A stretch of 64,000 bases of DNA from a virus. Position numbers and translations under genes: made by a program. The DNA is taken from IMG/VR virus record IMGVR_UViG_3300011008_000022; one strand, given 5' to 3'. The notes below the pieces were generated by a model. The model saw only the letters and a program-made list of their open reading frames with translations. It ran no database searches and was not told where the DNA came from. Positions 84 to 44,728 of the stretch are shown here, one piece after another (positions within the stretch are counted from its first letter, which is position 1; the number at the start of each line of letters is the position of its first letter).

Positions 84-130
84 CCACCGTGCCCAGCCGT
101 TCTCGGCTGGGTCTAATAACCCAAAGTAAT

Positions 131-5467: not shown

Positions 5468-6013
5468 ATGAAACGTCCCCGCATCTATCTCTCAGGCCCT
5501 ATCACTGGCACTACCGACTATAAAGAGCGCTTCGAGGAAGCAGCCTTTATTGTTCAGTGTATGGGCTTTAAGCCAGTCAATCCTACCACAATGTTTGGCT
5601 GGCTGCAACCGTTGTTTTCCATTTGCCCCTATCGCTTCCAGGTCTTCGTCGATTGCATGGTACTCGCTATCTTCTGCAAGGCCATCTATCTGATGAAAGA
5701 CCACGACGCATCCAGAGGCGCACGACTCGAAAAGGCCGTGGCCGACTTCCTGAAGATGCACACTGTGCTCGCTGGTTCTGACAGCGAGAAACCAATCACA
5801 GGGGCTATGAAGGCTGTCGCCGATTTGGGCAGGGCATTCGCCTCTTTGAATGAAACAATCATCAAAGGATGGTCCGAAGAAACTAACTGCACCACTTGTG
5901 CTAACAGTCAGCAGAAAACACCGCGTGGCTACTTCTGTCCCACAACGGGCGAAACAGTCAACCGCCGTATGTGGTGTGAGGCATTCTGTCATCGTGACCC
6001 GTCTAAACAGTAA
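5468..6013 (+). CDS. DUF4406 / nucleoside 2-deoxyribosyltransferase-like protein
   Basis: N-terminal IYLSGPITGTTDYKERFEEAA..GFKPVNP and the later ASRGARLE resemble DUF4406. Confidence 0.55.
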   Translation: MKRPRIYLSGPITGTTDYKERFEEAAFIVQCMGFKPVNPTTMFGWLQPLFSICPYRFQVFVDCMVLAIFCKAIYLMKDHDASRGARLEKAVADFLKMHTVLAGSDSEKPITGAMKAVADLGRAFASLNETIIKGWSEETNCTTCANSQQKTPRGYFCPTTGETVNRRMWCEAFCHRDPSKQ

Positions 6014-8531: not shown

Positions 8532-10169
8532 ATGAATGGACTACTCGAAATTCTGTCAACGAAGAAGTGGATGATCATGCCGGAGTACGTGCATGGCTCT
8601 CGCACCATGTGGGAACAGAACCTCAATGGTCATATCGCTTTGGAGTTTGACAAAAAGAAAAAGCCATACGCCATGCAGCTCACCAAGGCTTCTGAGGATG
8701 CTGCTCCCGAAATCAAGGAGTATCAGGTAACAGAGCAAGGTAAGGTGGAAAGCCGCTGGTGGATGGAAGACATGGATGCGCCTTTCGTAAACGTCATGCC
8801 GGTGGCAGGTCCTATCACCCGTGAAGGTGGTGCTTGCTCCTATGGCTCGATGGATCTCCGCGACTGGCTCATGGAGGCTGCAAATAACGAGTTCTGTAAG
8901 GCGCATGTATTCGTTATCAACTCGCCTGGTGGTTCTGCTTGGGCTATCAACGACTTCAAACAGGCTATCGACTATGCACACGAACGCGGACAGAAGGTGT
9001 ATGCTTTCGTCGATGGTCTCTGTGCCTCTGCTGCCATGTACCTGGCTTCTCAGTGTGACGAGGTTTATTACATGCACCCTAAAGACATGTTTGGCTCTAT
9101 CGGTGTCATGGCTGTGTTCTACACCGAAAAGAACGGTACGACCAACAAGTACACCAACGAGACGTTCCACGAACTCTACGACCCAGAGTCCTACGATAAG
9201 AATAAGTGGTACCGCGACCTCGCCGATGACCCGAAGAATGATAAGGTGCTCATCGACGAACTGAAAGAGGATGGTATTCAGTTCCGTGCCGACATTCAAA
9301 AGGCTTTCCCTGCTGCTAAGGAAGAGCATATCCATGGAAAGGTCTTCGAGGCTGAAAAGGTCAAGGGCATCCTTTGTGATGGTCAGATGACGCTTGGTGA
9401 GGTCATCACCCGTGCTTTCGAGGTGGCCAACGGCACCGCTACGCCGATTGAGCGCGTCGCTCCTGTCGCTCCTGAAGATGATGTACCCGAACAGGACCCT
9501 GCACCAGCAGCCGAAGCTGCCACCGCTGCCACTCCTGCCACGGATGCCACTGTGCTTGGTGGTTCTGCCACCGAGGGAGAAAAGAATAACCCTTTAAACA
9601 ACGAGAATATGAAACAGTACGAAAAGATTGCCACCGCATGTGGCGTAGATGAGCTGGTAGTGAACGCCGAGGGTGCTCACTTCGTGCCCGACATGCTCGA
9701 AGCACTTAACCAGACACTTGAGACAAATGCCAAGGAAAAGGCTGATGCTCAGACGTTGATCCAGAGCCTGAAGACACAGGTCGGCCAGGTTGAGACTACT
9801 AAGAACGATGCCGTCTCTGCTCGTGAGAAGGAATTGAACGATGCACACGAGCAAGCCATCAACACGCTCAAAGAGGAGCACACCACTGCACTCAATGCAG
9901 AGATTGCTGCTCGCGAGAAGGCTGAGAAGGAACTGAAAGAGGTGAAAGACCAACTGGCTACTGCTAACCAGACCATCACCGACCAGAAGGGACAGATTGA
10001 GCAACTGACAACGGCTGCTGCCGCTGTACCTGCCGGCTCTCCCGCTAACAATGGTCAGGGTGCTCAGGAGCAGAAGGTAGAGGGTGGTATGCCTGCATAC
10101 GACCACACCAAGTCGCCTCTGGAGAACCAGCGCATCCGTAAGGAGTACATGGCTAAGATCAGCGGCTAA
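8532..10169 (+). CDS. S49 (SppA/ClpP-fold) prohead protease fused to a coiled-coil scaffolding domain
   Basis: VFVINSPGGSAWAINDF...GLCASAAMYLASQCD...GSIGVM match S49 peptidase blocks. The C-terminal 185 aa are E/K/Q/A-rich and coiled-coil-like. The gene lies immediately upstream of the capsid candidate. Confidence 0.8.
   Translation: MNGLLEILSTKKWMIMPEYVHGSRTMWEQNLNGHIALEFDKKKKPYAMQLTKASEDAAPEIKEYQVTEQGKVESRWWMEDMDAPFVNVMPVAGPITREGGACSYGSMDLRDWLMEAANNEFCKAHVFVINSPGGSAWAINDFKQAIDYAHERGQKVYAFVDGLCASAAMYLASQCDEVYYMHPKDMFGSIGVMAVFYTEKNGTTNKYTNETFHELYDPESYDKNKWYRDLADDPKNDKVLIDELKEDGIQFRADIQKAFPAAKEEHIHGKVFEAEKVKGILCDGQMTLGEVITRAFEVANGTATPIERVAPVAPEDDVPEQDPAPAAEAATAATPATDATVLGGSATEGEKNNPLNNENMKQYEKIATACGVDELVVNAEGAHFVPDMLEALNQTLETNAKEKADAQTLIQSLKTQVGQVETTKNDAVSAREKELNDAHEQAINTLKEEHTTALNAEIAAREKAEKELKEVKDQLATANQTITDQKGQIEQLTTAAAAVPAGSPANNGQGAQEQKVEGGMPAYDHTKSPLENQRIRKEYMAKISG
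9609..10169 (+). CDS. candidate nested in-frame scaffolding protein (internal start)
   Basis: ATG 9609 is in frame with 8532. It is preceded by hairpin 9555-9575 and TAACCCTTTAAA (9587-9598), which together look like an intergenic junction. Confidence 0.35.
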   Translation: MKQYEKIATACGVDELVVNAEGAHFVPDMLEALNQTLETNAKEKADAQTLIQSLKTQVGQVETTKNDAVSAREKELNDAHEQAINTLKEEHTTALNAEIAAREKAEKELKEVKDQLATANQTITDQKGQIEQLTTAAAAVPAGSPANNGQGAQEQKVEGGMPAYDHTKSPLENQRIRKEYMAKISG

Positions 10170-14310: not shown

Positions 14311-16305
14311 ATGGCCACAGAAAGACGTGATGTATATATGAACGCAATGCAGCAGCGCATCTACTACTCGAATGCGAGGGATGTGCGCCTGCTGGCTGCT
14401 CGACGATTCGGTAAGACGGACGGCTCCATAGGACCTCGTATCTATCGTGTCAGTCAGTCTATGCCTCGTGCTACTAACCTGTGGCTGGGTAACTCTCGTA
14501 AACAGCTCTATACACGTACTGTCCCTGGAACCATTGCGGCCATTGAGCGTTTTTTCAATATTCAGGAGGGACGGCACTTTGGATGGGGTAAACCGCCACG
14601 ATGGGTACAGAAACCTGTCATCACTCCTAAGACTTGGGATAACGTCATCTGGTTTGCTAATGGCACTATCTGGCAACTAATCTCACTCGCAGTCACAGGT
14701 TCGGCCAACTCTATCACGGCCAACAGTATCGTGGCGGATGAGTGTAAGTTTATGTCTAAGGCGAAAATCGACGGAGAAATCATGCCGGCACTGTCTGGTA
14801 TCGTACATCCGTTGGGCGACCCGTCTTTCTCGGATTCTAACCCGCTCTTTAAATCTACTTTCTTCGCTTCTGATGCTTCGCTCACGGCTAAGGGTAACTG
14901 GCTGGAGAAAGAAGAGGACAAACTGGATATGCACCCTGAAACGGGTCCCTATGCGAATAAGACGTATCGTGAGATACAAGCCATGCTCACTGACTATGCC
15001 GAACGTGTCATGTGGGCAAACGAACTGCTCCGTAATGCGAAGCGTGACGGCTGTGTGCCTATCCTCCTGCCGGCTGAACAGATAGCTGCTATCCAGGCGA
15101 AGGCTAAGATGATGATCAACCATGAGGGACCGTTTAAAATCTTGCCAAACTACGGCAAGCGCATCAATAAGGCCATGCTTGAAATGGCCGTCAACTATAA
15201 ACTGATTTCTCCTGATGAAGCGGAATTGCTTTTCTGCCATAAGTATCTCATTACTCCTGAACAGGATTTCGACATGATGATGATATCGGAGTCGAAACCC
15301 TACCAGCGTAAGATACGGGAATTGCAGTGTAATGCGTTCTGCTTTTGGAGGGCATCAAGTCTCGATAATATAGACATCCTTGGTGATTCCTATATAGCGA
15401 GAATGGCGCGTGACCTTCCGCCGGTCGTGTTCGCCATCAGTATTCTTAATAAGAAGATACAGAAGTCTAACGATGGCTTCTACTCCAATCTCGACATCGA
15501 GAATGTTCATGGCTATATTCCCGACGATTGCCCTGCCATCGATAAGAGCATCACCAAGAAAAAGGCTACGAGTGTGCTCAACGGTTCTGCCGTTGAAGAG
15601 GAATACGAGACACCTGACTTCTACGGATTGGGCAACCTGAAGGATTGCACACTCGATGGTGACGTGATGGATGCGCTGCCGTTGTATATCGCACTCGACT
15701 ACAATGCTAACATCAACTGGGTAGTCACGGGCCAACTGTATAAACGCGACAATCAGGAGTGCCTTAATGTCCTGTCTTCTATGTACGTGAAGTACGAACG
15801 TAAGTTGCGTGAACTGATGGCCGACTGGCATCATTACTATAAACCTCACCAGAAGAAAAATACTGAGGTAGTATTTTTCTATGATGCAACGGCTAAGTTT
15901 CGTGGCTATGCCTTGGAGGGTGCCGAGGACTTTAAGGATGTTGTAATATCTGAACTGACGAACTACGGCTGGAACGTCCGTGCTATCGATATGGGTGCGC
16001 CGGTAGAACATCAGCAGAAGTATAAGGATATCAACGAGTCTTTGGCTGGGGCTATCTATCCGGCTATCCGCATCAACCGTGAAAATAACGAGGCGCTGAT
16101 TGTGGCACTCACCACTGCCGAGGTGCAGATGTCCTATCGTGGCTTCCGCAAATGGAAAGCGGGTGAAAAGCTCTCTGAAAGCGAGGATGATTCTGTACGT
16201 CTCGAATACCGTACAGACGGCACGGATGCTTTCGACTCGCTATACATCGGATGCCGCTACCACCTCGCCAACATGTCCGGCATGTGTCTTCCCCTTGGAG
16301 ATTAG
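14311..16305 (+). CDS. terL: terminase large subunit
   Basis: Walker A-like LLAARRFGKTDG near the N-terminus and Walker B-like NSIVADECKF. The 664 aa size fits. Confidence 0.7.
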   Translation: MATERRDVYMNAMQQRIYYSNARDVRLLAARRFGKTDGSIGPRIYRVSQSMPRATNLWLGNSRKQLYTRTVPGTIAAIERFFNIQEGRHFGWGKPPRWVQKPVITPKTWDNVIWFANGTIWQLISLAVTGSANSITANSIVADECKFMSKAKIDGEIMPALSGIVHPLGDPSFSDSNPLFKSTFFASDASLTAKGNWLEKEEDKLDMHPETGPYANKTYREIQAMLTDYAERVMWANELLRNAKRDGCVPILLPAEQIAAIQAKAKMMINHEGPFKILPNYGKRINKAMLEMAVNYKLISPDEAELLFCHKYLITPEQDFDMMMISESKPYQRKIRELQCNAFCFWRASSLDNIDILGDSYIARMARDLPPVVFAISILNKKIQKSNDGFYSNLDIENVHGYIPDDCPAIDKSITKKKATSVLNGSAVEEEYETPDFYGLGNLKDCTLDGDVMDALPLYIALDYNANINWVVTGQLYKRDNQECLNVLSSMYVKYERKLRELMADWHHYYKPHQKKNTEVVFFYDATAKFRGYALEGAEDFKDVVISELTNYGWNVRAIDMGAPVEHQQKYKDINESLAGAIYPAIRINRENNEALIVALTTAEVQMSYRGFRKWKAGEKLSESEDDSVRLEYRTDGTDAFDSLYIGCRYHLANMSGMCLPLGD

Positions 16306-16344
16306 TCATTGTGCCCAGCCGTTTTCGGCTGGGCTTCCACCACT

Positions 16345-16371
16345 CCCAGCGCCTCTCCGCTGGGATTTTTT
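16345..16371 (+). terminator. hairpin plus T-tract
   Basis: CCCAGCG-CCTCTC-CGCTGGG followed by ATTTTTT. It is the second of two tandem hairpins after terL. Confidence 0.55.
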
Positions 16372-19750: not shown

Positions 19751-20051
19751 GCGTTACATCATAGGCCAGCCGGCCTCTGGCTCGCGACCTCTTTGTAAAG
19801 TGCTCGGCGGTTCCGCCGCCGAGAATGAAATAATAAAATAGTATTAACAATAAAAAAAGTCACATCAAGAGGTGAAGTCACAAGAGCGTGACCATCCATA
19901 AAAAATTGACTTACTGAGACACTTGATGTCAGGGATTGACTTCCTGAACATACAAACTGATAGACTCCTTCCCCAAAGAGAATAGCAACATAGGTTGTTC
20001 GAGCCTTCTACAGCTCAACGGGGAAACGGAGCAAACGGCAACATATCGTGG

Positions 20052-28811: not shown

Positions 28812-29522
28812 ATGAAAAGAATTATCATCTTTGGTACAGCTCACCTCGATAGCACACCAGGCAAATGTTCGCCTGATGGTGCTTTCCGTGAGGCTGTTTA
28901 TTCACGCGAGATTATCGCTGACCTTAAAGCCATCATGGAAAAGACTTATGGCTACACTTGTTTCGTGGACTATGAGTCTATGCAACCGCTACCAGCATGG
29001 ACGGAGGCCCGCAAACGTAAGGGGTATAGTGCTGAACAGTCAGCAGAACTGGTGTACCGTACTCAGCAGGTCAACAAAATCTGCCAGAAGTATGGTGTCG
29101 AAAACTGTCTCTACGTCTCTATCCACGTCAACGGTGCTGGCGATGACGGCAAATGGCATGGCGCTGGCGGATGGGGCTGTTACACGTCTCGTGGTAAGAC
29201 AAAGGCTGACCTGCTGGCGGAATGCTTCTATGATGCAGCCATCACCAACCTGCGCTCGTATGTTAGCATCATCGACGATGGAAAACGACGTGGCGACTAT
29301 ACAGAGAAGCAGGTGCCGTTCCGTATGGATAAGACGGATGGCGACCGCGACCTGGAGGCCGACCTCTATGTGCTCCGACATTCTGCCTGTCCTGCCGTCC
29401 TCACGGAAAATCTCTTCCAGGACAATCGGCGCGACGTGGCCTTCCTCCTCTCCGACGAAGGCCGTCAGGCTATCACACGCTTGCATGTCGAAGCGCTCCT
29501 ATCATACTGCCAGAAATATTAA
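28812..29522 (+). CDS. N-acetylmuramoyl-L-alanine amidase (Amidase_3-type endolysin)
   Basis: IIIFGTAHLDSTPG, YVSIHVNGAG and VLRHSACPAVLTENLFQDN match amidase_3 blocks. Confidence 0.72.
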   Translation: MKRIIIFGTAHLDSTPGKCSPDGAFREAVYSREIIADLKAIMEKTYGYTCFVDYESMQPLPAWTEARKRKGYSAEQSAELVYRTQQVNKICQKYGVENCLYVSIHVNGAGDDGKWHGAGGWGCYTSRGKTKADLLAECFYDAAITNLRSYVSIIDDGKRRGDYTEKQVPFRMDKTDGDRDLEADLYVLRHSACPAVLTENLFQDNRRDVAFLLSDEGRQAITRLHVEALLSYCQKY

Positions 29523-29530
29523 CCACCGTG

Positions 29531-29556
29531 CCCAGCCGTTCTCGGCTGGGTTTTTT
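29531..29556 (+). terminator. H1 hairpin plus T6
   Basis: CCCAGCCG-TTCT-CGGCTGGG followed by TTTTTT, directly after the amidase stop. Confidence 0.6.
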
Positions 29557-29693: not shown

Positions 29694-30923
29694 ATGCTGA
29701 TATCAACAACTGAAGAGCTGCGTCTCTACTCACCGGCTAACGCCATCGACCACATCGACTCCATTCAGGGCTACATCACAAGCTCTGAAAAAGACACCTT
29801 GCTCGAAAAACTGGGCACACCACTCTACGAGGCTTTGGTAAAATACTACCGTGACCTACGTGCCTCTGAGGATGGTATCTCTACGTTCATCAAGTCTGTA
29901 ACCGATGGCGAAGATATGCCGCCATACGCACAGCTGCTCACCGTATGTCAGCGTATCATCACGTTCGATGCACTCGGACGTGCCATCGACATCCAGGCCG
30001 TGAGTGTCAATGGCTCTGGCGTGAATATCTCCACTGCCGACGATTACGGCAAAGCGGATGATAAGGCTATCCAGGCGTATAAGTCCACCTGCATCAAAGA
30101 GACTCATGCTGCCATCAATGCACTGCTCGTCATGCTCGAACAGTGGTACAAAGAAGCAACCCCTACCAACCCTGAAAACCCACTCGTTCCCGCTCCATCC
30201 TCTCCTGTGCTCGGTGATTCGGTCGCCGAGAATGAAGCCACCGTGCCCGATGATTCTCCATCGGGTGACACCCCCGCTCCCGACGCTCCTGCGTCCGGCG
30301 ATTCGGTTGCCGAGGAAGACCCCGACCCCTCCACCGAGAAAGCAGAGATAGCATCCTTGTGGGGCCATTCCCGCTACTTCTACCTGGCTGCTTCTCTCGC
30401 TATCCCCTCTGCAACCGTCCTGCAGGAATATCTGAACATCTACGACTCTCGCGAGAAGTTCATCACCATGCTTCCTGACCTCCGCTATATCCAGGAGGAC
30501 ATCATAGCACCTATCATCGGAGAAGATTTCCTCGACTACCTCATTGAGCGCTCGCGTGTACTTGACCGTAGTGCGCTCGCTGGTTCTGCCAGCGAGGGTG
30601 ACGAAAAACTCCTCACTCGCATCATCCACAAACTCCGTAAGGCGGTTGCTCACCACCTCGAAGCGCGTACCATGCAGCTGAAGACTACGGACCCTCGACG
30701 TGAGGCTGCTCGCAACGAGGCGGTACGTCTTACCACCGACCTCTCAGAGTATATCCAGACACATCAGCAATCCTTACCAGAGGCAGCTATCGAAGCATTG
30801 AAAACGTCACCGCTCTGTGTCGCCGCTACTTCCGATGCTTCTCCCTCTGGCGGTTATACGCCTAACTTCCAAAACAATAGCGATGATGCCGTAATGTTTG
30901 TAACACCCGCTCTCCCACTCTAA
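29694..30923 (+). CDS. hypothetical virion-module protein with hairpin-element insert
   Basis: 409 aa ORF. The low-complexity centre PVLGDSVAENEATVPDDSPSGDTPAPDAPASGDSVAEE is encoded by hairpin elements at 30210-30311. Confidence 0.65.
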   Translation: MLISTTEELRLYSPANAIDHIDSIQGYITSSEKDTLLEKLGTPLYEALVKYYRDLRASEDGISTFIKSVTDGEDMPPYAQLLTVCQRIITFDALGRAIDIQAVSVNGSGVNISTADDYGKADDKAIQAYKSTCIKETHAAINALLVMLEQWYKEATPTNPENPLVPAPSSPVLGDSVAENEATVPDDSPSGDTPAPDAPASGDSVAEEDPDPSTEKAEIASLWGHSRYFYLAASLAIPSATVLQEYLNIYDSREKFITMLPDLRYIQEDIIAPIIGEDFLDYLIERSRVLDRSALAGSASEGDEKLLTRIIHKLRKAVAHHLEARTMQLKTTDPRREAARNEAVRLTTDLSEYIQTHQQSLPEAAIEALKTSPLCVAATSDASPSGGYTPNFQNNSDDAVMFVTPALPL

Positions 30924-30926: not shown

Positions 30927-33452
30927 ATGACCCAAGCTCGTCCATCTGATTATTGGTTCTCTACCAGCGCGATATTTATCCAACTGAACGCTGCTGGCGA
31001 CCGTAACTTCATCCATGCAAACTGCGCGGATGGATCTATGATCATGTGCTACATGAAGGGCATCAACGGACTGGGGTACGACAACGGACACAACTACCGC
31101 CGATGGACGCTGGTTTCATCACCAACGGTATTCCACGATGATGACCCTCGCTGGGTGTATATCGCTATACCAAAGTCCGATGCTGTTGACGTTCGCGCAC
31201 AACTGGTGTTCCCGTCCGAAGAACTGGATATCTACGGATGTAATGCTCAGGGGCAACAGATTGGCCCTACCGACTATTACTACATCTTTACGCAGGGTAT
31301 CATCAGTGCCTCGCGTGTAGGTGGTGTCACACAGGACCGCACATGGACGCAAACGATTGATTGTGGTAAACTGGCTTCCGACGAAGCCATTGCTGCTGGT
31401 GGTGAAGGCTCGTGGTGGGAATACAATGCCACCAACGACATGGTGAAGTTCCTGAAGACCATCAGTGAGGCTATCTTCGAGAAACTGACGGCTTCATGGG
31501 CTAACATCACACAGTTGGTGTTGCATGGCCACATCATCAATGGCGTGGCAGGCGAAAACACGTTAGAGAGTTCCAACGACACGCTGGTAACACCAAAATA
31601 TGCGGATGACCACTGGCTGTCTTCTACGCATGATGATGTAGCGCATGGCGACATCACTTTCAATAACTCTATTCAGGTCAAAGGGGAAACGGTACTGAAA
31701 CGTACCGTCACCATAGGCGACTATGAAAAGGATATACAGGTGGGCATCGGCTCGCGCCAGGGTGTTCGCGTTCTGCCGGACGGCACTATCATAGCTCGCT
31801 CGCTGGAACTGTCGCAGGAACTCTCGGTACCAACGTTCAAATACAACAGTATCGAGGTATTGGCGGGTACTCGCTGGGACTCTGCCGGTAAAGGCCGTGT
31901 TAAGGAGATTATCGATAACGACGAAACAAATCATACCTGCCAGTTCGTGCTCGATCTGAACGATGGAGAACCTGGAGAGTTCATCGTCAACGACATCCTG
32001 CGTGGCTTCTGGCATAATATGGATGGTACCAAGAATGCGGTTGCTAACAGCGACGACCGCCGAGGTAACATCAACCGTGCGGGATTCCAGTCTATTTATG
32101 CCCGTGCCATTGCCGTGGCCAACGTCATTGAACGTGTGGTGGATGATGTAACCTACTATATCGCTCAGGATAGCGAATATGTGCCACAACAGGGCGACCG
32201 CATACTGGAGAATGGTCTTGTTACCGTACAGATGCGTCAGTTCAATACTTCGCCGGCTACTTATTCGCCTGCTCCTGAGAAATGGTCGGTACTCTCTGTA
32301 TCTGGTTACTTTGGTACGGATCATCCAGAACGTCAGAAGTTCTTTGTATATACCACGTCCTACATGGCTCGTTTCGAGGGTGTCAATACATGGGAATGGG
32401 GCGAACATACCTTTATGGGTGGCTGGGGCGACCTCACGGGCTTCACGATGCTGGAAGACCACGACGGCCAAATCACTCGCAAGGAGTTTACGGGCGAAGG
32501 CTTCGTAACCAAGGATGCACACATCTATGGTGTCGTCGATATGTTTACGCGCTTCTCCGACCGTATCGACATCCAACTGTCTCGACCTGATGGCACCATT
32601 GCCGATGGTGAACAGCAACGGGCGGACTTCATCTTACGTGACGTGGAGGGTAGCATTATCTCCGGCAACTACACCTTGCAGATCACCCGTCAGTCGGGTA
32701 ACGCTGCAGCAGATACAGCATGGAATGCGGCTATCGCTCAGAGATACCCTTCCGGCATACCGTCAGCGTTATATTTCCAGTTCTCTGATGTGCCGGAGAA
32801 AGGGGCCGTATTCGTAGTGGCTGCTTCACGTCAGGTGACAACAGACACTACCACTGACACCTATACGACATCGGCATCATTCGTGCTCTCTCGTGCTTAT
32901 CCACAAGAAACATTCCTCGGCCCTTGGGACTCTACAACGGAATATGAGCGCACACCACGTCAGTACCCCACCGTCACGCATGGTGGCTGTAAGTGGTATC
33001 TGAAGGTGGCTACAAGCCTGGGCGAAGAGCCACATCCTCTCAGTACATCATGGGGCATGGTATATGGTGCTAACGACCTATCCATTGCTTTCTACAATGA
33101 GAGCGGACAGCGCATCACATCGGCTGTGCAATATCCTGGCAGCGTCAACCTCTTCCTCGATCCGCATCTGCTGTGTGGCAACTTCGATATTACTAACGAA
33201 CTATCGGCTTCTGATTGGGTATGGTCACGCTATACGGGCAACTATGGCGAAGAGATTGATACTCGTACTCCTGCTGACCGTCAGGCTGACCAGGGATGGC
33301 CTAACGCTCACTGGCCGTCAACACCACAGACGCGCACCATCCGCATCAACAACGACGACATGCCGCCGTCATGGGGTAACGGTCCTATCGTCAACTTCAT
33401 CATCACGGCATCCTATAATGGTATCTCCATTCCAAATATAGTCCAGATGTAA
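30927..33452 (+). CDS. hypothetical large virion-module protein
   Basis: 841 aa ORF. No motif recognised. Confidence 0.65.
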   Translation: MTQARPSDYWFSTSAIFIQLNAAGDRNFIHANCADGSMIMCYMKGINGLGYDNGHNYRRWTLVSSPTVFHDDDPRWVYIAIPKSDAVDVRAQLVFPSEELDIYGCNAQGQQIGPTDYYYIFTQGIISASRVGGVTQDRTWTQTIDCGKLASDEAIAAGGEGSWWEYNATNDMVKFLKTISEAIFEKLTASWANITQLVLHGHIINGVAGENTLESSNDTLVTPKYADDHWLSSTHDDVAHGDITFNNSIQVKGETVLKRTVTIGDYEKDIQVGIGSRQGVRVLPDGTIIARSLELSQELSVPTFKYNSIEVLAGTRWDSAGKGRVKEIIDNDETNHTCQFVLDLNDGEPGEFIVNDILRGFWHNMDGTKNAVANSDDRRGNINRAGFQSIYARAIAVANVIERVVDDVTYYIAQDSEYVPQQGDRILENGLVTVQMRQFNTSPATYSPAPEKWSVLSVSGYFGTDHPERQKFFVYTTSYMARFEGVNTWEWGEHTFMGGWGDLTGFTMLEDHDGQITRKEFTGEGFVTKDAHIYGVVDMFTRFSDRIDIQLSRPDGTIADGEQQRADFILRDVEGSIISGNYTLQITRQSGNAAADTAWNAAIAQRYPSGIPSALYFQFSDVPEKGAVFVVAASRQVTTDTTTDTYTTSASFVLSRAYPQETFLGPWDSTTEYERTPRQYPTVTHGGCKWYLKVATSLGEEPHPLSTSWGMVYGANDLSIAFYNESGQRITSAVQYPGSVNLFLDPHLLCGNFDITNELSASDWVWSRYTGNYGEEIDTRTPADRQADQGWPNAHWPSTPQTRTIRINNDDMPPSWGNGPIVNFIITASYNGISIPNIVQM

Positions 33453-33496
33453 CCACCGTGCCCAGCCGTTCTCGGCTGGGTCCTAAACAAAAGAAT

Positions 33497-34267
33497 ATGA
33501 AACAAGACAAATATTTCTTACGCTTTCAGCAGCTCTGCATTGGCATCCTGGCTCAGTCTGACAACTGCATGGAGTCACAACAGCAGTTCAAGTCTGCTCG
33601 CTCCGTTCCTGAACTGGTGACGGCATGGCAGCGATTTTGGGCGGGTGTCCTACACGAAGTACCTGAACAGGTCATCAAGGCTTTTGCTGACCTCTACCCC
33701 GTCTATCGTGATGACATTATTCGTGCCGGTGTCTATTATAACGAGGCTCCGCCTGTCGGCATCTATCCTGAAAACCCTATATCTCCCGTCTCACCCTCCG
33801 ATGCAGCCACCGTGCCCAGCGCTTCTCCGTTGGGTCCTACCACCAACGCCATGATACTCATCGGCGATGCTCCCGCCACCGTTCCCGATGATTCTCCATC
33901 GGGTGAAACAGCTTCTCCATCGGATCTCGTAATTCATGGCCGTAATCGTGTCTATGTCCTCGGCAACCTCCCCGTGACTGTCACCGACAATTCCAGCGTC
34001 CATGTCAACAGCGACCGTGCCGTAGTGACCGTATGTGGTTCTGCTCGTGCTAACATCGAACGGGGAACACTCATCGCTCGTGACCGTGCCGTAGTCAATG
34101 GCAAGGGTCTCATAACCTGCTACGACTCTACGACGATATATGTCTCTGGTGGTGTCCTGCACGATAAAGGACACCTCGATATCATCGCCTATAACGATGC
34201 GGTCATCAACAGCTTCACCAACCGTCGCATCAAACTCAACGACCAGGCAATCCTGAACATCGAATAA
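33497..34267 (+). CDS. hypothetical protein, C-terminal beta-helix-like repeats
   Basis: The first ATG after hairpin 33461-33480 is at 33497. It has repetitive V.V..(N/D) segments. In-frame hairpin elements lie at 33815-33834 and 33884-33903. Confidence 0.6.
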   Translation: MKQDKYFLRFQQLCIGILAQSDNCMESQQQFKSARSVPELVTAWQRFWAGVLHEVPEQVIKAFADLYPVYRDDIIRAGVYYNEAPPVGIYPENPISPVSPSDAATVPSASPLGPTTNAMILIGDAPATVPDDSPSGETASPSDLVIHGRNRVYVLGNLPVTVTDNSSVHVNSDRAVVTVCGSARANIERGTLIARDRAVVNGKGLITCYDSTTIYVSGGVLHDKGHLDIIAYNDAVINSFTNRRIKLNDQAILNIE

Positions 34268-34319
34268 TAGTCTCTCCACCGTGCCCAGTCGTTCTCGGCT
34301 GGGTCCTAAAAGTAAAAGT

Positions 34320-36941: not shown

Positions 36942-36989
36942 TCACAGTGCCCGCTGATTCCGTCAGCGGGTCTCTAAAACGTATAAAAA

Positions 36990-38108
36990 ATGCCTAAAAT
37001 TGAATTGTCCCTTCCCCGCTCCTGGAACCAGTGTACGCTACCTGCGCTCCGTGCTATTGCTGCCGTGCTGACTGACTGCTCGGCACGTATCGATCGCTTC
37101 CATCCTTTTGACATGATGGAGGTAAAGGTGGGGGTATTACTACGTTTAACGAATATCGAAGTGCTGGAACCAATCAACCCGCGAGTAGCGGTCGAAGAGC
37201 AATACTATACCTGCCGCCTACGTCCCTGGACTATCGATGAAGAATATAGTCGTTGGTTCCGTATGCTGCGATACTATCGCAGCTTCTGTGCTTGGTTCCG
37301 TCGCTCTGTCCTCGGACATGATGACACTTTCTCGCTATACGTGTGGCAAATCAATTACTGGCTCACTCCTCACAAAGATCAGGCAACAGGACGCATGGTG
37401 CCTGGTATGCTCGACTGGATGAATAGCGATAGTAAGAGCTTCCTTCAGCGCTTCCCGTTCCCGTCTGTCCGTCGTCGCTCTGGTAAGTGCTCTCGTAAGG
37501 TGACATTCAAGGGACCTAACACGTTTATGGATGGCTTCTCATGGCGACGCTACCGATTCGCTCAGGACTATATGCAGATGTATATCGAACAGCAAAACCA
37601 TTTGCTCGAACTGCAACAGTCTGGCAAGGTGTCGGCAAAGGACTTGCTGAAAGCAACAAAGGCCATGGATCTGTCTAAGGCGCTTTTCCTGGCTACTGTC
37701 TTCAATCGTAAGATAACATTTGTCAACGAGGAAACAGGACAGACTATCACCGATTATCATTACCAGTTTAATCAGCATTCAGATAACAGTCCTTTCTTCC
37801 GTAATTTCGACGATAAGGATTGGCAACTGGTGTGCCTATGGTGGGCGGGCATGATGCACTATTTGCATCAGACTTATCCCAAGGTGTTCAAGGTACAGAA
37901 GGTGAAAGGTAACAAGAAACCTGTCAACCCGCTCATGTTATATGCGCGTACAACGGCAACACTGGAGAAGTACCTCCACTCTACTGCAACGGACATAGAA
38001 AGGGAACCTTACTCCACCATCCTTCAGCAACTCGAAGACATCACACGTCGTAACGAGGAGATAGAAGCTGCAAACCGCAAAATGAGGGCACAATCCCGCC
38101 GTAAGTAG
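36990..38108 (+). CDS. hypothetical protein
   Basis: 372 aa ORF. It contains an in-frame copy (37256-37283) of the 28 nt leader element found intergenically at 29649-29676. Confidence 0.6.
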   Translation: MPKIELSLPRSWNQCTLPALRAIAAVLTDCSARIDRFHPFDMMEVKVGVLLRLTNIEVLEPINPRVAVEEQYYTCRLRPWTIDEEYSRWFRMLRYYRSFCAWFRRSVLGHDDTFSLYVWQINYWLTPHKDQATGRMVPGMLDWMNSDSKSFLQRFPFPSVRRRSGKCSRKVTFKGPNTFMDGFSWRRYRFAQDYMQMYIEQQNHLLELQQSGKVSAKDLLKATKAMDLSKALFLATVFNRKITFVNEETGQTITDYHYQFNQHSDNSPFFRNFDDKDWQLVCLWWAGMMHYLHQTYPKVFKVQKVKGNKKPVNPLMLYARTTATLEKYLHSTATDIEREPYSTILQQLEDITRRNEEIEAANRKMRAQSRRK

Positions 38109-38214
38109 CCACCGTGCCCAGCGCTTTTTCGCTGGGTTTTCTTCGTCACCGTGCCCAGCCGTTCTCGGCTGGGTCTTCAAATCACTTTGTCCCGTCCTCG
38201 TCACTCGCATTCTG

Positions 38215-38283: not shown

Positions 38284-40119
38284 ATGGCAAAAAAGACTTC
38301 TGCTCCCGTCACCCGCGTAAAGGCCAGCAACTTCATAAAAAAGGCTGCTGACCTGCATCGCCGTAACTACTCGGTACTCCTGCCAGGCGACCGCTCTTAC
38401 TATAATTTGGATGGCCCCAGCAGCGATATTTCTTGGGGCGACTTCATCGGCTCACAGCTTCGTGCCGGTGCAACCGAAAATGGTAAGTCTCAGCGTAAGT
38501 CTATACCTACGCTCTATTTCTCGTCAGGAAACGAAAGCCAACAGGGAGCTGAGAAGATTGGTACGCCTAACTTGGGATGGATAGAATGGGGCTATGGCAA
38601 CAACCTGCCTAACATCGTGGCATTGCTCACACACATGCTGCCATATACGGCTGCCGGTCTTAAATTCAACACGGATCTCTGTGCTGGACTCGGACCTCAG
38701 CCGATGTACGACTGTACGCAGTATGTGGGTGGTAACATCACACAGAAACTCATCCGCTATAAGGATGCAGGACAATGGCTGCGCGGACGTATCATCGACC
38801 TGCAGACACAGCTGCTGAACCTCGAACAGAAAAACACCACTCCCGATGATTCATCATCGGGCGAAGGCATGGGTGCTGCTGTTGGCTCTGTAACAGGACG
38901 TGGCGCGAAAAAGTCTGAGGTGTACGATGCACTTGTGGATTCTATCAACGAACAGATAAAGGAATTACAAGAGGCACATAAGGTATGGAAGACTACAGAT
39001 GAGGAGGTACAGAAGTTCCTCGATAATAATAATATCGCTCAGACATGGCTTTCGCTGGTGCTCGATCAGGAACTGTTTGGTATCTCGTTCCCAGAACTGT
39101 TGCTGAACCAGCAAGACCTCGACGAGAATGGAAACCCTGTCAAAACGAAGACTTGGACTCCTCGCGTGACGGGTATCGCCCACCGTTCATGCCATACGAC
39201 CCGCATGGAGCGTATGGATGAAATGGGTAAGATTAACTTCGTGTACTGCTCTACAAGATGGCTTGATAAATACTTCATCGAACAGGGTGGAGAGAATAAC
39301 GCGCCTATCAATGCTATACCTGCCCTCCATGTGCCCTCTCCTCTTGCTTCACTGGAGGAGAAGGTACGTGAGGCTCGCCAGAAAAATGTATCTGTCAACA
39401 ACAGACCGACGCACTTTGTTTTGCCGACGGTCTATCCTACCGCTGGTCGCCCATATTACCCGACTCCTGCCTGGTACTCTATCTTTGGTGGTGATATCTA
39501 CGAATACATCACAACGATATTCTCAGACCGCCTCTCTCGTAAGCGTAACAGCAATGTCATCGGACGTGTCATCTATCTGCATAACGATTACATGCAGCAG
39601 TTGTTTGTGGCCAAAAAAGCACAGGCTGATGCTAACAAACAGGCTGAGATACGCGACAAACTCTATACGCAGATCAACCAGTGGCTCGCCAATCGCAACA
39701 ATGCCGGACAGTCATTGCTGGCTTTCACATTCATGGGCACGGATGGTAAGGAGCATAAGAGCTTCGAGATTGTAGAGATCGAAAGCAACAATAAGGATGT
39801 GGTGGCAGCCAACGAGAAAGAGACGGCTGAACTGTCATCAGTGGTATTCATGGCTCTGGGTCTTGATGGTCGTCTGCTGGGTTCTTCGCCGCTGTCTCTC
39901 GTAGGTAGCAACGGTGGTACTGACATCCGCGAACGCTTCCTGCTTCGCTTGATCCTGAAATCACCGCAAATCAACATCATGCTTAAACCGCTGGAAGTGC
40001 TCTCTCGCTTCAACAAGTGGGACCGCCACCTGGTATGGCAGGTGCAAAAGCAGGCAATGACAACACTTGACCGCTCTAAATCGGGCGTGACAACACAATC
40101 TGACGACGAAGGTAAATAG
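38284..40119 (+). CDS. hypothetical large protein (portal candidate by size only)
   Basis: 611 aa ORF flanked by 33 nt direct repeats (38231-38263 and 40114-40146). An in-frame hairpin lies at 38842-38861. Confidence 0.55.
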   Translation: MAKKTSAPVTRVKASNFIKKAADLHRRNYSVLLPGDRSYYNLDGPSSDISWGDFIGSQLRAGATENGKSQRKSIPTLYFSSGNESQQGAEKIGTPNLGWIEWGYGNNLPNIVALLTHMLPYTAAGLKFNTDLCAGLGPQPMYDCTQYVGGNITQKLIRYKDAGQWLRGRIIDLQTQLLNLEQKNTTPDDSSSGEGMGAAVGSVTGRGAKKSEVYDALVDSINEQIKELQEAHKVWKTTDEEVQKFLDNNNIAQTWLSLVLDQELFGISFPELLLNQQDLDENGNPVKTKTWTPRVTGIAHRSCHTTRMERMDEMGKINFVYCSTRWLDKYFIEQGGENNAPINAIPALHVPSPLASLEEKVREARQKNVSVNNRPTHFVLPTVYPTAGRPYYPTPAWYSIFGGDIYEYITTIFSDRLSRKRNSNVIGRVIYLHNDYMQQLFVAKKAQADANKQAEIRDKLYTQINQWLANRNNAGQSLLAFTFMGTDGKEHKSFEIVEIESNNKDVVAANEKETAELSSVVFMALGLDGRLLGSSPLSLVGSNGGTDIRERFLLRLILKSPQINIMLKPLEVLSRFNKWDRHLVWQVQKQAMTTLDRSKSGVTTQSDDEGK

Positions 40120-40166: not shown

Positions 40167-41204
40167 ATGGCACAAGGATTACTCATACAAGGTGCATCAC
40201 CACTCGTAGGCAGCCCTATCACTTATCAGGTGACAGCAGCGGTCATCAGTGGCGATTGCGCTTTTCATCGTGTCAAACTGACGGTATCGGCATTCCTCGA
40301 AGGTGTCGATATCAACTTTGCCGACCTCACGCTGTCCTCTCCGGCTGAGTCGGGAGAAATCCTGAAGTTCGACATCAGCAGCGCACTACGTGCTGTCGCA
40401 GATAAGTATGAGTACACTGTCAACCCGCCTGCCAACTATCCGCGTATCGGATATAGACTGTCTGCCTGCGATGAGTACATGCAGAACGGAGAGGTACACG
40501 ATAACGTGGGCGTGGTGACGATTGACACCATTCAGTATTGCATCATGGGTGCCTACTCGGATATGGAACGTCTGCTATCTGCTGGCAGCAAGTCGGCACA
40601 GCACTTTACACGCAAGCCGAACACGATGCCGGAGGTGGTGGCCGTAGGAGAGAGCATGGTATGCCCTCAGTCCTATGCTCAACCCGTCAGCAGTGGAAAT
40701 ATTACCGTAGGACCTACATCATCGGTGGTAAACATCGTCAACGAGGGATTGCAGACGGTCAATGGCCGTCAGGTGTATGCACTGCCTGCAGGACAGAAAG
40801 ACCGTTACGAGTTCCGCTTTGTCAATGGCCTGGGATGCCTCGAAAGCATCAGCGTAAAGGCTTTGCGTACCTCTGAAACGAACGTTACCCAGGAGTCTTT
40901 CATTCGCTCGGTGCAAGAGACGTTCAACTCATTCTCGCGAGGACTCGTGACTAAGAAAAACGATTACGAGACTTGGAAGATGTGTAGTGGACCGCTCGAC
41001 GAAGCATGGCATTCGTGGTTCATGCACGAGTTCATCATGGCTAAGTTCGCCTGGATAAAAATCAACGGACATTGGATAGGGTGCCACATCGTTCCTGAAG
41101 AAACAGTAGATGGCATCGATCGTACCAGCGGCAACTTCATGCAGGTGGAGTTCTCAGTACAACTTGACATCAATGGCAGCCCACTCGCTGCTTTGGCCAT
41201 ATAG
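40167..41204 (+). CDS. hypothetical protein
   Basis: 345 aa ORF with a 20 nt spacer after leader hairpin 40128-40146. Confidence 0.65.
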   Translation: MAQGLLIQGASPLVGSPITYQVTAAVISGDCAFHRVKLTVSAFLEGVDINFADLTLSSPAESGEILKFDISSALRAVADKYEYTVNPPANYPRIGYRLSACDEYMQNGEVHDNVGVVTIDTIQYCIMGAYSDMERLLSAGSKSAQHFTRKPNTMPEVVAVGESMVCPQSYAQPVSSGNITVGPTSSVVNIVNEGLQTVNGRQVYALPAGQKDRYEFRFVNGLGCLESISVKALRTSETNVTQESFIRSVQETFNSFSRGLVTKKNDYETWKMCSGPLDEAWHSWFMHEFIMAKFAWIKINGHWIGCHIVPEETVDGIDRTSGNFMQVEFSVQLDINGSPLAALAI

Positions 41205-41266
41205 CCACCAATCCCAGCCGTTCTCGGCTGGACCTCGAAAAGAAACAACATAATAATAAAATAAAA

Positions 41267-42388: not shown

Positions 42389-43066
42389 ATGGAAAAATTT
42401 AACTATCAACAACCGTGCTGCATCGAGAGCACACTGCCACAGCTGCTGAAGAAATACGACTGGCTGCCATTCCAGACAAGTGGCGATGTGACAGTAGAGA
42501 AAATCCTGAAGGCTGTAAGCTACCTCGCTGGCAACAACCTCGACATCACTATCTGCCTGCCGGCTATCGACGTAACAATCCTGCGCCTATTCGCTTGGTA
42601 CCATAGACGTGGATGGCTGAAAGCGTTTACCGTCTTAACGGCAACAGACCAAAGCGAACTGATCCGTAACGAATTGCCAAAGGAACTGCCACTAACCATC
42701 GTGGATAGTGCCGACATCCCCGAAAACTATGGTATGTTGGTCATCAAAGGTGAACTGAGCAATGTCATCGTCAATGGTCCGATCTTCTCAGTCGTCACAC
42801 CAGGCATCTGTTCCTATACGGCATACTATGGCAAAGACCCAGAGCGTATCGCTCAACTGACCGACACCATCAATGCCCGCATCCGCGTCGCTGATGCCAA
42901 AAAGAAAAGGGCTGCAAGGAAAACAACCCCAAAGAAAAAAGGCACCACCACTCCCGCCTCCGAAGCTCCTGCTCCCGCTGATGGTTCCACTGTGCTCGGC
43001 GATTCTGTCGTCGAGGAAAAAGACTCCACCTCTCCCGCTGCTTCTCCAGCGGGCACTGATGAATAA
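42389..43066 (+). CDS. hypothetical protein with hairpin-element C-terminal tail
   Basis: 225 aa ORF. The tail GSTVLGDSVVEEKDSTSPAASPAGTDE is encoded by hairpins 42995-43015 and 43034-43053. Confidence 0.6.
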   Translation: MEKFNYQQPCCIESTLPQLLKKYDWLPFQTSGDVTVEKILKAVSYLAGNNLDITICLPAIDVTILRLFAWYHRRGWLKAFTVLTATDQSELIRNELPKELPLTIVDSADIPENYGMLVIKGELSNVIVNGPIFSVVTPGICSYTAYYGKDPERIAQLTDTINARIRVADAKKKRAARKTTPKKKGTTTPASEAPAPADGSTVLGDSVVEEKDSTSPAASPAGTDE

Positions 43067-44401: not shown

Positions 44402-44728
44402 ATGACCTCAAAATTAGACCTTAATCGTGCTTTTAGTGAGCACGGAGTTACTTCTAAGACCGTTGCAGAGCGCATCGGACTGACACCACAGACCATCAGC
44501 GCTTATGTCAACGGCAACCCCACCGTCAAGAGCCTCTATCAGATAGCAGATGCACTTGAATGTGATGTGCGCGACCTGTTCTATCCCGTCGAGGATGCCA
44601 CAGAGGAAACCACCACTCCCGATGCCTCTCCATCGGGCACAAACGGCCCTCGTGCCTCTGCTCTGATTACATGTCCGCATTGCGGCACAGTCCTCTCAGC
44701 ATCCCTTTCGGTCTTCAACAAATCATAA
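44402..44728 (+). CDS. XRE/Cro-CI-type helix-turn-helix transcriptional regulator
   Basis: SKTVAERIGLTPQTISAYVNGNPTVKSLYQIADALECDVRDLF is a typical HTH_3 pattern. It is divergently arranged to the minus-strand genes. An in-frame hairpin lies at 44618-44637. Confidence 0.7.
   Translation: MTSKLDLNRAFSEHGVTSKTVAERIGLTPQTISAYVNGNPTVKSLYQIADALECDVRDLFYPVEDATEETTTPDASPSGTNGPRASALITCPHCGTVLSASLSVFNKS

Follow-up and report, generated by a model that had tools for sequence, protein, structure and literature searches.

Tagged repetitive extragenic palindromes (REPs), which comprise the GTAG and CGTC superfamilies, are built from an unpaired tag, a stem of 8-9 bp, a loop of 4-5 nt and a short tail (Di Nocera et al. 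2013, PMC3733652). Most lie less than 20 bp from the 3' end of an open reading frame (ORF), to which they sometimes give the stop codon, and their G·T pairs suggest that they act as RNA (PMC3733652). A minority resides in frame within ORFs, often grouped in linkers, and the Rickettsia elements RPE-4 and RPE-6 are themselves CGTC REPs (PMC3733652). Association with RAYT is confined to the GTAG type, and REPs of the CGTC type are without a dedicated transposase (PMC3733652). Here, we describe H1, a family of 36-nt hairpin units, in 64 kb of phage-like DNA (IMG/VR virus record IMGVR_UViG_3300011008_000022, 64,000 nt; this whole stretch is hereafter the window), to which three hairpins at 30210-30315 belong. 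In how it is built and where it lies, H1 is the phage analogue of the bacterial tagged REPs. A preliminary description of the window had likened these hairpins to Rickettsia palindromic elements (RPEs); the comparison is apt as an analogy, with tagged REPs being structurally closer (PMC3733652).

Like tagged REPs, H1 forms tens of short (20-40 bp) palindromic units with a tag, an 8-bp stem, a loop of 4-5 nt and a short tail; about 29 of its approximately 44 copies are extragenic, and in 10 junctions the upstream stop codon lies 8-9 nt before the stem. As with the CGTC REPs, no dedicated transposase was found for it, in window ORFs scanned with Pfam or by eye in ~13 kb of a sister genome. The two nevertheless differ in sequence and arrangement. 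The H1 tag, CGTG or TGTG, is one base away from CGTC/TGTC but falls outside the GTAG and CGTC consensus, its stems begin with CCC or CTC whereas REP stems begin with A/T pairs, and its copies are co-oriented head-to-tail whereas REPs mostly form head-to-head dimers or occur in both orientations. H1 is also phage-borne, while REPs reside in bacterial chromosomes. With roughly one copy in every 1.4 kb, it seems much denser than the bacterial REP families known to us.

RPEs inhabit a reduced bacterial genome and have no fixed orientation. RPE-1, reportedly described by Ogata et al. in 2000, is said to measure 100-150 bp and to encode ~45 aa. H1 resembles RPEs in that it occurs both between genes and in frame in unrelated genes (10 ORFs here), is translated, is tolerated at surface or linker sites and coincides with gaps in homologues. 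It is set apart from them, by description rather than by direct sequence comparison, through its restriction to a phage lineage and the lack of an Rfam match.

Among phages, Cluster O mycobacteriophages carry more than 30 copies of a 17-bp dyad repeat, partly intergenic and about one third in coding regions (PMC4351075). The invariant half-sites of this repeat suggest a protein site in duplex DNA, there is no orientation bias and no covariation, and recombination between copies gives deletions, but the repeats were not implicated in most indels; Cluster K start-associated sequences and Cluster A stoperators are mentioned as kindred (PMC4351075). By analogy, the 17-bp repeats are the nearest phage precedent for partly intragenic repeats. 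H1, in contrast, has covarying stems, is strictly oriented and is the main site of indels. The promoter early stem-loops (PeSLs) of T4-type phages, reportedly described by Arbiol et al. in 2010, are said to be gene-boundary regulatory cassettes that promote modular recombination; they include a promoter and are untranslated. Mycobacterial interspersed repetitive units (MIRUs; reportedly Supply et al., 1997) are said to lie between cistrons in one common orientation, to overlap start and stop codons and to differ in the number of tandem copies, and they are not defined by a hairpin. A functional model for intergenic H1 may lie in the RNase III sites of T7 and in REP-type mRNA stabilisers, intercistronic hairpins that set RNA ends and protect upstream mRNA. 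The T7 sites are irregular duplexes of ~20 bp cut by a known host enzyme, whereas none is known for H1.

REP-like hairpins and their in-frame 'decoration' of proteins have thus already been described for bacterial chromosomes, and the compact phage genome is the new setting; within a limited literature search, we know of no phage case of such in-frame decoration. H1 offers a concrete route from non-coding repeats to disordered linkers and tails in viral proteins, and its phage offers a natural system for studying hairpin roles in polycistronic transcripts of Bacteroidota phages, for which the rules of ribosome binding and termination are poorly known. For annotation it is a practical warning: in these phages, the starts of ORFs, linkers that look 'low-complexity' and sites where indels concentrate all bear the mark of the repeat.

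The H1 hairpins, their strand and their placement

Each H1 copy consists of a 5' tag CCACYGTG, a GC-rich stem of 8 bp and a TTCT-type loop, and in a hairpin scan the commonest form was (TAA)CCACCGTG-CCCAGCCG-TTCT-CGGCTGGG-T(CCTAAA). The tag occurs as CCACCGTG, CCACTGTG or CCACCACT, ending in CGTG or TGTG. An alignment of 38 copies (A1) was turned into a covariance model (R1), with which the window was searched with filters off. At E<=0.02 this yielded ~44 matches in the 64 kb, exclusively on the + strand, matches on the - strand being merely weak palindromic echoes. The motif CACYGTG occurs 29 times on the + strand versus four times on the - strand, and 17 of the 29 are followed directly on their 3' side by a hairpin of at least 7 bp. 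The genes of the window (~50% G+C) are themselves nearly all on the + strand. No Rfam family matched at gathering thresholds, and a scan for decayed copies with a relaxed tag motif returned only noise.

The stems covary. In A1, 95% of the stem cells are paired and double-sided changes occur at six of the eight pairs; in A2, an alignment in which the window and its relatives are represented by 111 distinct copies (120 R1 matches in that set), pairing reaches 96% and double changes occur at all eight pairs. Sliding the stem partners against each other as a control reduced pairing to 45% or less. Both alignments have an 8-bp stem, loops that are mostly TTCT, CTCT or TTCTG and a T(CC) tail, and at least 36 distinct stems are found under one tag and loop type. 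At the seven outer pairs, G·T/T·G combinations outnumber A·C/C·A by 18 to 4 (binomial p=0.002), and because of this excess the folding strand is the sense strand. The H1 fold is therefore selected on the sense strand and not as a cruciform or on the template strand, which points to RNA or possibly to + strand single-stranded DNA. For the same reason, we rejected a hairpin promoter of the N4 type, which would fold on the template strand. Stems in the preliminary list measure 7-9 bp, with predicted RNA folding energies (dG) of -8.8 to -16.3 kcal/mol; copies in ORFs are somewhat weaker (mean -12.2 kcal/mol) than intergenic ones (-15.4 kcal/mol).

Neither chance in linker codons nor conservation of the peptide accounts for the stems, the two possibilities that the preliminary description had itself raised. 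Random draws of synonymous codons for the individual 7-residue peptides reproduced the observed stem in 0.2-11% of cases (P 0.002-0.11; summed log10 P -21), and synonymous shuffling of 66 genes left 1.48 +/- 1.02 family hairpins (at most 5 in 100 shuffles) against 12 observed. At the C-terminal site of the ORF at 29694-30923, the peptides vary among orthologues and the pairing stays: PSGSPAG (CCCAGCGG/CCGCTGGG), PDASASG (CCCGATGC/GCGTCGGG) and PAESSAG (CCCGCTGA/TCAGCGGG). The window itself has SDASPSG there, with a stem destroyed partly by synonymous changes. It is the stem and not the peptide that is conserved.

The same unit lies both between and within genes, in the latter at linker or terminal positions, as had been claimed: ~29 copies are intergenic and at least 15 reside in ORFs. 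The intergenic copies fill 22 of 65 gene junctions. In the standard layout, the upstream stop codon is followed by the 8-nt tag as spacer, a hairpin of 20-21 nt, an A-rich leader of 16-19 nt (TCCTAAACAAAAGAAT) and the ATG; the spacer between stop and stem is exactly 8 nt in nine junctions and 9 nt in one, and the distance of 16-19 nt from hairpin to ATG recurs in many copies. A minority of copies has a T-run and scored as terminator-like (29530, 38116, 43107 and 43164), with T-runs also at 8379, 16345 and 63689, and is followed by a Bacteroidetes-type promoter (TTTG...TAnnTTTG) and then by a hairpin of a second family, H2, in the 5' leader. The U-run is absent after the hairpin in most intercistronic copies and in every copy within an ORF. 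We count the copy at 17253 as intergenic despite an ORF call, because the real downstream start is the ATG at 17289, 16 nt past the hairpin. Two coding uses of the junction hairpins were considered. The GTG of CCACCGTG, taken as a start codon in some ORF calls, puts the hairpin in frame with the downstream gene at only about one third of junctions, which is chance, and was rejected as a start. Stop-codon readthrough or a -1 frameshift via the hairpin 8 nt past the stop finds no support, frame continuity downstream being likewise at chance.

All hairpin copies listed in the preliminary description are present where it had placed them, and its tally of at least nine host ORFs becomes 10 (additional copies and relics are marked in Table 1). 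We refer to six of the hosts by letters: D (29694-30923), E (33497-34267), F (38284-40119), G (42389-43066), H (44402-44728) and I, the ligase. The non-coding twin that had been noted at 19800-19829 is identical to 30207-30236 at 26 of 30 positions. Of the in-ORF copies, only some half retain the common 5' flank CCAC(C/T)GTG unaltered; in the rest it is replaced by CACCACT, CTCCTGTG or CCACCTCT or, at 59057, is missing. Every in-ORF copy is embedded in a segment rich in P, S, A, T, D and E, between domains or at the C-terminus. In the ligase, for instance, homology to LigA stops near residue 400, and both copies are in the tail beyond. This NAD-dependent ligase is without the usual C-terminal region of Zn-finger, HhH and BRCT, and its end (59300-59442) consists of a tail of low complexity and, after it, a hydrophobic segment resembling a membrane anchor (AAVLATVACAAVLCCFGAVVLGAAVFCLPLIAG). 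The C-terminal half of ORF 8532-10169 is scaffold-like by its charged, heptad-like composition (by eye), and the sister-genome version of the partial ORF ending at 83 is a CxxxCxxC motif protein, radical-SAM-like by eye.

The in-ORF copies, previously described as translated into short low-complexity peptides, share one reading frame except for the copy at 59057. In the others, the first stem base is codon position 1, giving T-V-(P/L)-x-x-S-x-x-(G/E) with Ser encoded by the loop. Among 27 intergenic copies examined from -12 to +33, 25 were free of stops in this frame (frame 0) and 11 and 14 in the other two; the TAR stop of the cassette itself is in frame 1, and the TCC-TAA tail in frame 2. 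No frame meets a stop within the core unit, and the two alternatives give peptides that contain Cys, Trp or Phe (HRAQPFSAG, PPCPAVLGWV). The one-frame bias may reflect both the persistence of harmless peptides and the spread of copies from one ORF to another.

Turnover and distribution among relatives

With protein D as the query, 23 related loci were obtained on IMG/VR contigs of 80-104 kb (labels beginning with L denote relatives). R1 detected H1 in the near-identical L001, L002 and L007, in a clade of 80% identity (L003-5), in L014 and weakly in L017, but not in L006, L008-13, L015-16 or L018-23. In protein alignments, the distant orthologues, each one continuous ORF, have gaps or hypervariable sequence opposite the hairpin segments of D, E and F. 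Since these H1-less orthologues are already single ORFs, the alignments support insertion and oppose the capture of former junctions by gene fusion. Insertion is also apparent in a FabB-like ketoacyl synthase of a sister genome, just upstream of the region covered by the window, which carries H1 (AATVPSGSPLGPG) and, compared with solved FabB structures, shows a gap of 8-9 aa exactly at ATVPSGSPL. The claim that in-ORF copies behave as insertions is thus borne out by the gaps in D, E, F and FabB, and by the presence or absence of whole units among close relatives. Junctions without the repeat measure 3-15 nt in H1-less relatives versus ~45 nt, filled by a cassette, in the lineage of the window. 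In the sister genome L029, the FabB-like gene (E=3e-64 to PDB 4xox) sits at 6602-8082, ~5-6 kb upstream of window position 1, beside a small ORF that is acyl-carrier-protein-like by eye, an arrangement also seen in L028. L028 and L029 further encode ThyX-like and radical-SAM-like ORFs (by eye) and a tape-measure-like protein of 1933 aa with in-frame H1 copies near its C-terminus.

Individual copies differ in how they fared. D2 is a conserved island amid a diverged linker in L003-5, and has uncompensated stem changes in L002 and L004. The D4 site is an alignment gap in several orthologues, while L003 keeps its pairing via G·T. E1 corresponds to a gap of 30 aa in the distant orthologues L010, L013 and L022, and L003 has its own genome's variant instead. 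In the loop that holds the F copy, L014 has a CTC-type copy (VLGGSATE) and L003 a C>T change that gives a T·G pair. G2 shows a double compensatory change to CCCGATG/CATCGGG in one relative, and the identical 20-mer stands in another gene and frame of L003. The orthologue of the 15577 copy in L032 has three double changes and is identical to the copy in the protease gene of L032. Across orthologous in-ORF stems, eight one-sided changes leave the pair intact (between Watson-Crick and G·U, in either direction), four are double, one gains a pair and three break it, a pattern that fits either selection on the fold or conversion from intact copies.

Indels of at least 9 nt between the window and its relatives cluster on hairpin units. 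At 41210, L031 has an extra non-coding tandem unit of 36 nt (GTG, 21-nt hairpin, 7 nt and CCACC), laid out as in the D1 indel; the cassette of 41 nt at 41203 is missing in L030; and a 32-nt deletion in L032 merges the tandem pair 16314/16345. Direct repeats of the H1 tag border the segment of 81 nt (27 codons) in the G tail that L031 lacks. An H2-like unit of 43 nt at 29554-29596 (GTCCCGTCTCTTGT plus the hairpin GGCGATTGCATCGCC), which duplicates the promoter -33 region, is missing from L001 and L033 at 98-99% identity, which makes this indel very recent. Sequence is also shared between sites within a genome: L003 has CCCAGCGGTTCGCCCGCTGG at an intergenic site, at the D C-terminus and at E1, and L032 has CTCGGTGGTTCTGCCACCGAG in both the protease-gene copy (orthologue of 8532) and the orthologue of ORF 14311. 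The L003 orthologue of ORF 36990 has H1 in a different reading frame, in an insertion of 27 nt. Because junction 34284 carries H1 in the window and H2 (GCTGCGATAATATCGCAGC) in nine relatives, the two families are interchangeable at a junction. No target-site duplication was found at indel boundaries, whose ends fall in repeats of the H1 tag, and a Pfam scan of window ORFs and inspection by eye of ~13 kb of sister genome (ORFs of L028 and L029) revealed no transposase. A selfish element, which the pattern had earlier been said to fit, stays unproven in the sense of active transposition. Units seem to turn over through recombination, namely gene conversion, unequal crossing-over and the swapping of cassettes.

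The exact canonical 27-mer is present in eight related IMG/VR contigs only, and among 185,579 species genomes canonical H1 was found in one contig of 8 kb, from a rumen Prevotella metagenome-assembled genome (MAG). Because the 27-mer is so restricted, H1 belongs to the phage lineage and is not a REP of the host. The contig (L024; Prevotella sp., JAFUUL010000028.1) has three H1 copies on one strand, at 847-920 and 2049-2084. With these copies and no DNA in common with the window, it probably represents a piece of a related phage that was binned with Prevotella, which gives a hint of the host. The window derives from an uncultivated Bacteroidota phage of the gut or rumen, with Prevotella as the probable host. 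No near-identical DNA was found for the window in a phage collection, and the sole match in a more distant DNA search was an endolysin fragment of Porphyromonas phages.

Weighing the explanations

The explanation that we favour, and hold to be somewhat probable, is that H1 is a REP-like, transcribed intercistronic hairpin cassette, spread and homogenised by recombination, whose in-frame copies are tolerated in linkers that they have partly built. The gene junction is its normal home. There it would be transcribed and fold in the sense-strand RNA, acting at cistron ends as a terminator, an attenuator or a hairpin that stabilises or processes mRNA 3' ends, with the T-run copies placed at operon ends before a host-type promoter. 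Because the copies are so alike they would recombine, through gene conversion, unequal crossing-over or slippage at the CCACC/GTG tag, so that units of ~36 nt are gained, lost, swapped and homogenised. A unit that occasionally landed inside a gene would persist nowhere but in flexible linkers, loops or tails, and nearly always in one frame; repeated landings could build linkers rich in P, S, A, T, D and E, and most in-ORF copies would be tolerated passengers.

Several points weigh against this explanation. The copies on which R1 was trained had been selected for being hairpins, and R1 has a slight preference for G·U. A T-run is missing from most intergenic copies, which are thus not canonical terminators, and relatives without H1 share the gene order, so that H1 is inessential to the expression plan. 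With a core that is open in three frames, the near-exclusive use of one requires either peptide selection or descent by copying. In addition, changes in the in-ORF stems are biased towards preserved pairs (eight single and four double versus three broken), and differing hairpins persist at the D C-terminus in orthologues of only 40-60% identity. Either of these last two observations could mean that in-ORF copies are functional and not passengers.

That possibility is the most substantial alternative, though we judge it unlikely: the in-ORF copies would be functional RNA signals, and the linkers would be dual-coded with the intergenic hairpin signal. A trans-acting RNase, an RNA-binding protein or the ribosome might recognise the hairpins at domain boundaries, which could provide segmental mRNA stability or processing, domain-wise expression or a co-translational pause; these details are unlikely to the same degree. 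A possible example is the separate expression of the scaffold-like C-terminal half after 9555, where, at the border of the protease region with this half, an A-rich stretch and an in-frame ATG come after the hairpin. In favour are the 12 stem changes that keep or compensate a pair compared with three that break one, the different stems at one D C-terminal site (L003, L006, L014, L017), the persistence of hairpin plus tag as a conserved island amid diverged linkers, and the stability of the in-ORF hairpins given above. Gene conversion, however, accounts for the same pattern, as identical hairpins occur in unrelated genes of one genome; the relics at 30831 and 61505 have decayed, near-identical genomes have uncompensated stem changes, whole copies come and go among close relatives, and distant orthologues work without any. 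If dual coding were true, RNA-structure and protein codes would overlap here, and the repeat would also be an engine of new disordered linkers and tails. Decidedly less probable, in our view, is an active miniature element resembling REPs or MITEs (miniature transposable elements with inverted repeats), one that an HUH/Y1 transposase of the RAYT or IS200/IS605 TnpA type, reading tag and hairpin, would move as single-stranded DNA. Such enzymes do recognise a tag plus hairpin (PMC3733652), a strict single orientation is what strand-specific transposition of single-stranded DNA would leave, and units are cleanly present or absent between relatives. Yet no HUH/Y1 enzyme was encountered in the ORFs and sister-genome sequence inspected for transposases, no target-site signature was found, and indel ends within tag repeats point to recombination or slippage. 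The orientation bias itself does not discriminate between the models because all genes are co-oriented too.

The remaining alternatives are far weaker. Fusion of neighbouring genes, which the preliminary description had offered as a second reading, would turn in-ORF copies into former intergenic junctions; E1 does retain both canonical flanks (GCCACCGTG ... TCCTA) with an ATG ~17 nt downstream, and copies are placed between domains. But the distant, element-free orthologues of D, E and F are single ORFs whose linkers are short, they conserve the Met that follows E1, and in the FabB-like enzyme the element lies within a single catalytic domain, so that this reading is largely refuted and very improbable. 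We give equally little credence to a duplex-DNA site for a dimeric regulator, comparable to Cluster O repeats or Cluster A stoperators, or to a promoter of a phage RNA polymerase. Many near-identical, co-oriented copies just upstream of genes, the gene of an HTH regulator at 44402 and the one-third intragenic share of Cluster O repeats (PMC4351075) would suit such a site. The half-sites of H1, however, covary instead of being invariant (all eight pairs vary, over at least 36 stems), the G·T excess indicates the sense strand and not the template strand of N4-type hairpin promoters, T-run copies are terminator-like, and no phage RNA polymerase was found in the Pfam-scanned ORFs. Scarcely tenable is a protein-level origin, in which a linker, cleavage or glycosylation peptide (TVPxxSPxG / VLGDSVAE) has codons that are self-complementary by accident. 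It would explain the single frame shared by all copies but one, DSV matches the Bacteroidetes O-glycosylation motif D-(S/T)-(A/I/L/V/M/T), and codon choice alone gives a stem at the 0.2-11% per peptide reported above. Against this, PSGSPAG, PDASASG, PAESSAG and LGDSVAE differ while pairing is kept, ~29 copies are non-coding, the 12 observed hairpins compare with 1.5 expected in shuffles, the relic at 30831 retains the peptide and has lost the stem through synonymous changes, and the host proteins are unrelated, several (ligase, HTH regulator) being cytoplasmic-looking by predicted function. Covariation and non-coding copies together refute it. A mimic of CRISPR repeats, acting as an RNA anti-CRISPR, was considered as well; copy number and the lack of likeness to any CRISPR repeat known to us argue against it.

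Feature coordinates and accompanying observations

Table 1. H1 copies, relics and accompanying elements in the window. Bit scores refer to covariance model R1; 'R1' alone denotes a match to this model; 'new' marks features absent from the preliminary description.
Feature	Position	Strand	Remarks
D1, CTC type, CTCGGTGA-TTCGG-TCGCCGAG, LGDSVAE	30210..30230	+	dG -13.3; in 36-nt indel missing from 80%-identical L003-5
D2, CCCGATG-ATTCTC-CATCGGG, PDDSPSG	30246..30265	+	39.2 bits; intact CCACCGTG tag
D3, degenerate, TCCGGCGATTCGGTTGCCGAGG, SGDSVAEE	30294..30315	+	6-7 bp stem; 10.2 bits, E=1.3; dG -8.8
D4, CTCGCTGG-TTCTG-CCAGCGAG, LAGSASE	30576..30596	+	28.5 bits; new
Decayed relic, D C-terminus, TCCGATGCTTCTCCCTCTGGC, SDASPSG	30831..30851	+	stem gone; intact, differing stems there in L003, L006, L014, L017; new
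Decayed relic	61505-61525		new
E1, CCCAGCGC-TTCT-CCGTTGGG, PSASPLG	33815..33834	+	41.3 bits; canonical flanks GCCACCGTG ... TCCTA both kept
E2, CCCGATG-ATTCTC-CATCGGG, PDDSPSG	33884..33903	+	36.6 bits; 15-aa gap in distant orthologues
F copy, CCCGATGA-TTCA-TCATCGGG, PDDSSSG	38842..38861	+	R1; variable loop of orthologue alignment
G1, CTCGGCGA-TTCTG-TCGTCGAG, LGDSVVE	42995..43015	+	36.9 bits; C-terminal tail of G, within 81-nt segment missing from L031
G2, CCCGCTG-CTTCTC-CAGCGGG, PAASPAG	43034..43053	+	31.8 bits
H copy, CCCGATG-CCTCTC-CATCGGG, PDASPSG	44618..44637	+	R1; between HTH (HTH_3, residues 13-59) and C-terminal CPHCG motif
I1, canonical stem CCCAGCCG-CTCT-CGGCTGGG, SQPLSAG	59057..59076	+	26.2 bits; frame 1; ligase tail
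I2, CTCGGTGG-TTCTC-CCACCGAT, LGGSPTD	59278..59298	+	35 bits; ligase tail
Copy at C-terminus of partial ORF ending at 83, LGDSVAE	51..71	+	25.5 bits
Copy CTCGCTG-GTTCTGA-CAGCGAG, LAGSDSE	5768..5788	+	32.8 bits; directly after DUF4406 of ORF 5468-6013; new
Copy CTTGGTGG-TTCTG-CCACCGAG, LGGSATE, ORF 8532-10169	9555..9575	+	36.4 bits; linker from S49-like protease region to C-terminal half
Copy CTCAACGG-TTCTG-CCGTTGAA, LNGSAVE, ORF 14311-16305	15577..15597	+	29.6 bits; new
Canonical cassette with T-run, TAA-CCACCGTG-CCCAGCCGTTCTCGGCTGGG-TTTTTTATG	29519..29554	+	47.8 bits; after amidase gene; operon end, then Bacteroidetes-type promoter
Canonical intercistronic cassette	33449..33484	+	47.2 bits; stop codon, 8 nt, hairpin, 16 nt, ATG
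Intercistronic cassette	34272..34307	+	R1; H2 hairpin instead in nine relatives
Intercistronic cassette	41201..41236	+	41-nt unit missing in L030; extra 36-nt tandem unit in L031
Tandem pair after ORF 14311-16305	16302..16368	+	R1; fused into one in L032 by 32-nt deletion
Tandem pair after ORF 36990-38108	38105..38177	+	R1; promoter and H2 hairpin downstream
Canonical intercistronic cassette	80..115	+	R1
Further intergenic copies	6007-6042, 6884-6920, 8323-8359, 8367-8402, 11494-11529, 13530-13565, 17241-17276	+	R1
Further intergenic copies	22606-22641, 23143-23178, 36938-36974, 41773-41808, 43098-43137, 43153-43188	+	R1
Further intergenic copies	43813-43848, 43872-43907, 52788-52823, 55109-55129, 56733-56769, 63677-63712	+	R1
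Non-coding CTC-type twin, CTCGGCGG-TTCCG-CCGCCGAG	19803..19823	+	52 nt past stop of target gene of retroelement; canonical H1 instead in L003/L004
H2 hairpins	2366-2384, 8415-8433, 29658-29676, 38245-38263, 40128-40146, 43852-43870		
H2 copy in ORF 36990-38108	37265-37283		peptide FRMLRYYRS
-7 promoter boxes (TATCTTTG or TACCTTTG, TTTG upstream)	29626-29633, 16398-16405, 38215-38222, 63742-63749, 8499-8506		
Retroelement reverse transcriptase	20503-21849		motif IYCDDMVIIG
Retroelement template repeat	20052-20170		
Variable repeat VR1, in ORF 18497-19750	19578-19696		17/17 mismatches at template adenines
Variable repeat in ORF 598-1215	1007-1116		16/16 mismatches at template adenines

The -7 promoter boxes appear to mark boundaries of transcription units, because each is downstream of a T-run H1 copy. 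The H2 family has a layout like that of H1, with an 8-nt tag TTCYGTAT, an 8-bp stem GYYGCKAT and a 3-nt loop, and takes the form ccGTAT-GCTGCGAT-nnn-ATCGCAGC. Its copies are placed in the 5' leader just past a TAnnTTTG promoter or between cistrons (40128, with the stop 8 nt upstream), and are followed by an A-rich leader and the ATG; one copy lies within an ORF. The range of H2 among the relatives is wider than that of H1 (L014, L017, L022).

The twin hairpin sits 107 nt past the end of VR1, a variable repeat of a complete diversity-generating retroelement (DGR) with its own reverse transcriptase, template repeat and two variable repeats, in which all mismatches are at template adenines. The twin is a candidate for the GC-rich hairpin that can follow the variable repeat of a DGR target gene at a short distance.

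Pfam hits at 131-592, 989-1984, 4645-5133 and 60522-61385 comprise a Tad2-like (Thoeris anti-defence) domain, N6_N4_Mtase and Dam methyltransferases and a ParA-type ATPase, which suggests anti-defence and possibly a plasmid-like lifestyle. A tRNA search of the window found none, PHROGs gave no usable annotation for ten structural ORFs, and a PDB sequence search with ORF 14311-16305 found nothing. At ~46778-47008, a short ORF or region encodes tandem peptide repeats (MSHKTPA twice, SNEVPAP three to four times), which suggests that the mostly non-coding sequence here contains a tandem DNA repeat of 21 nt.

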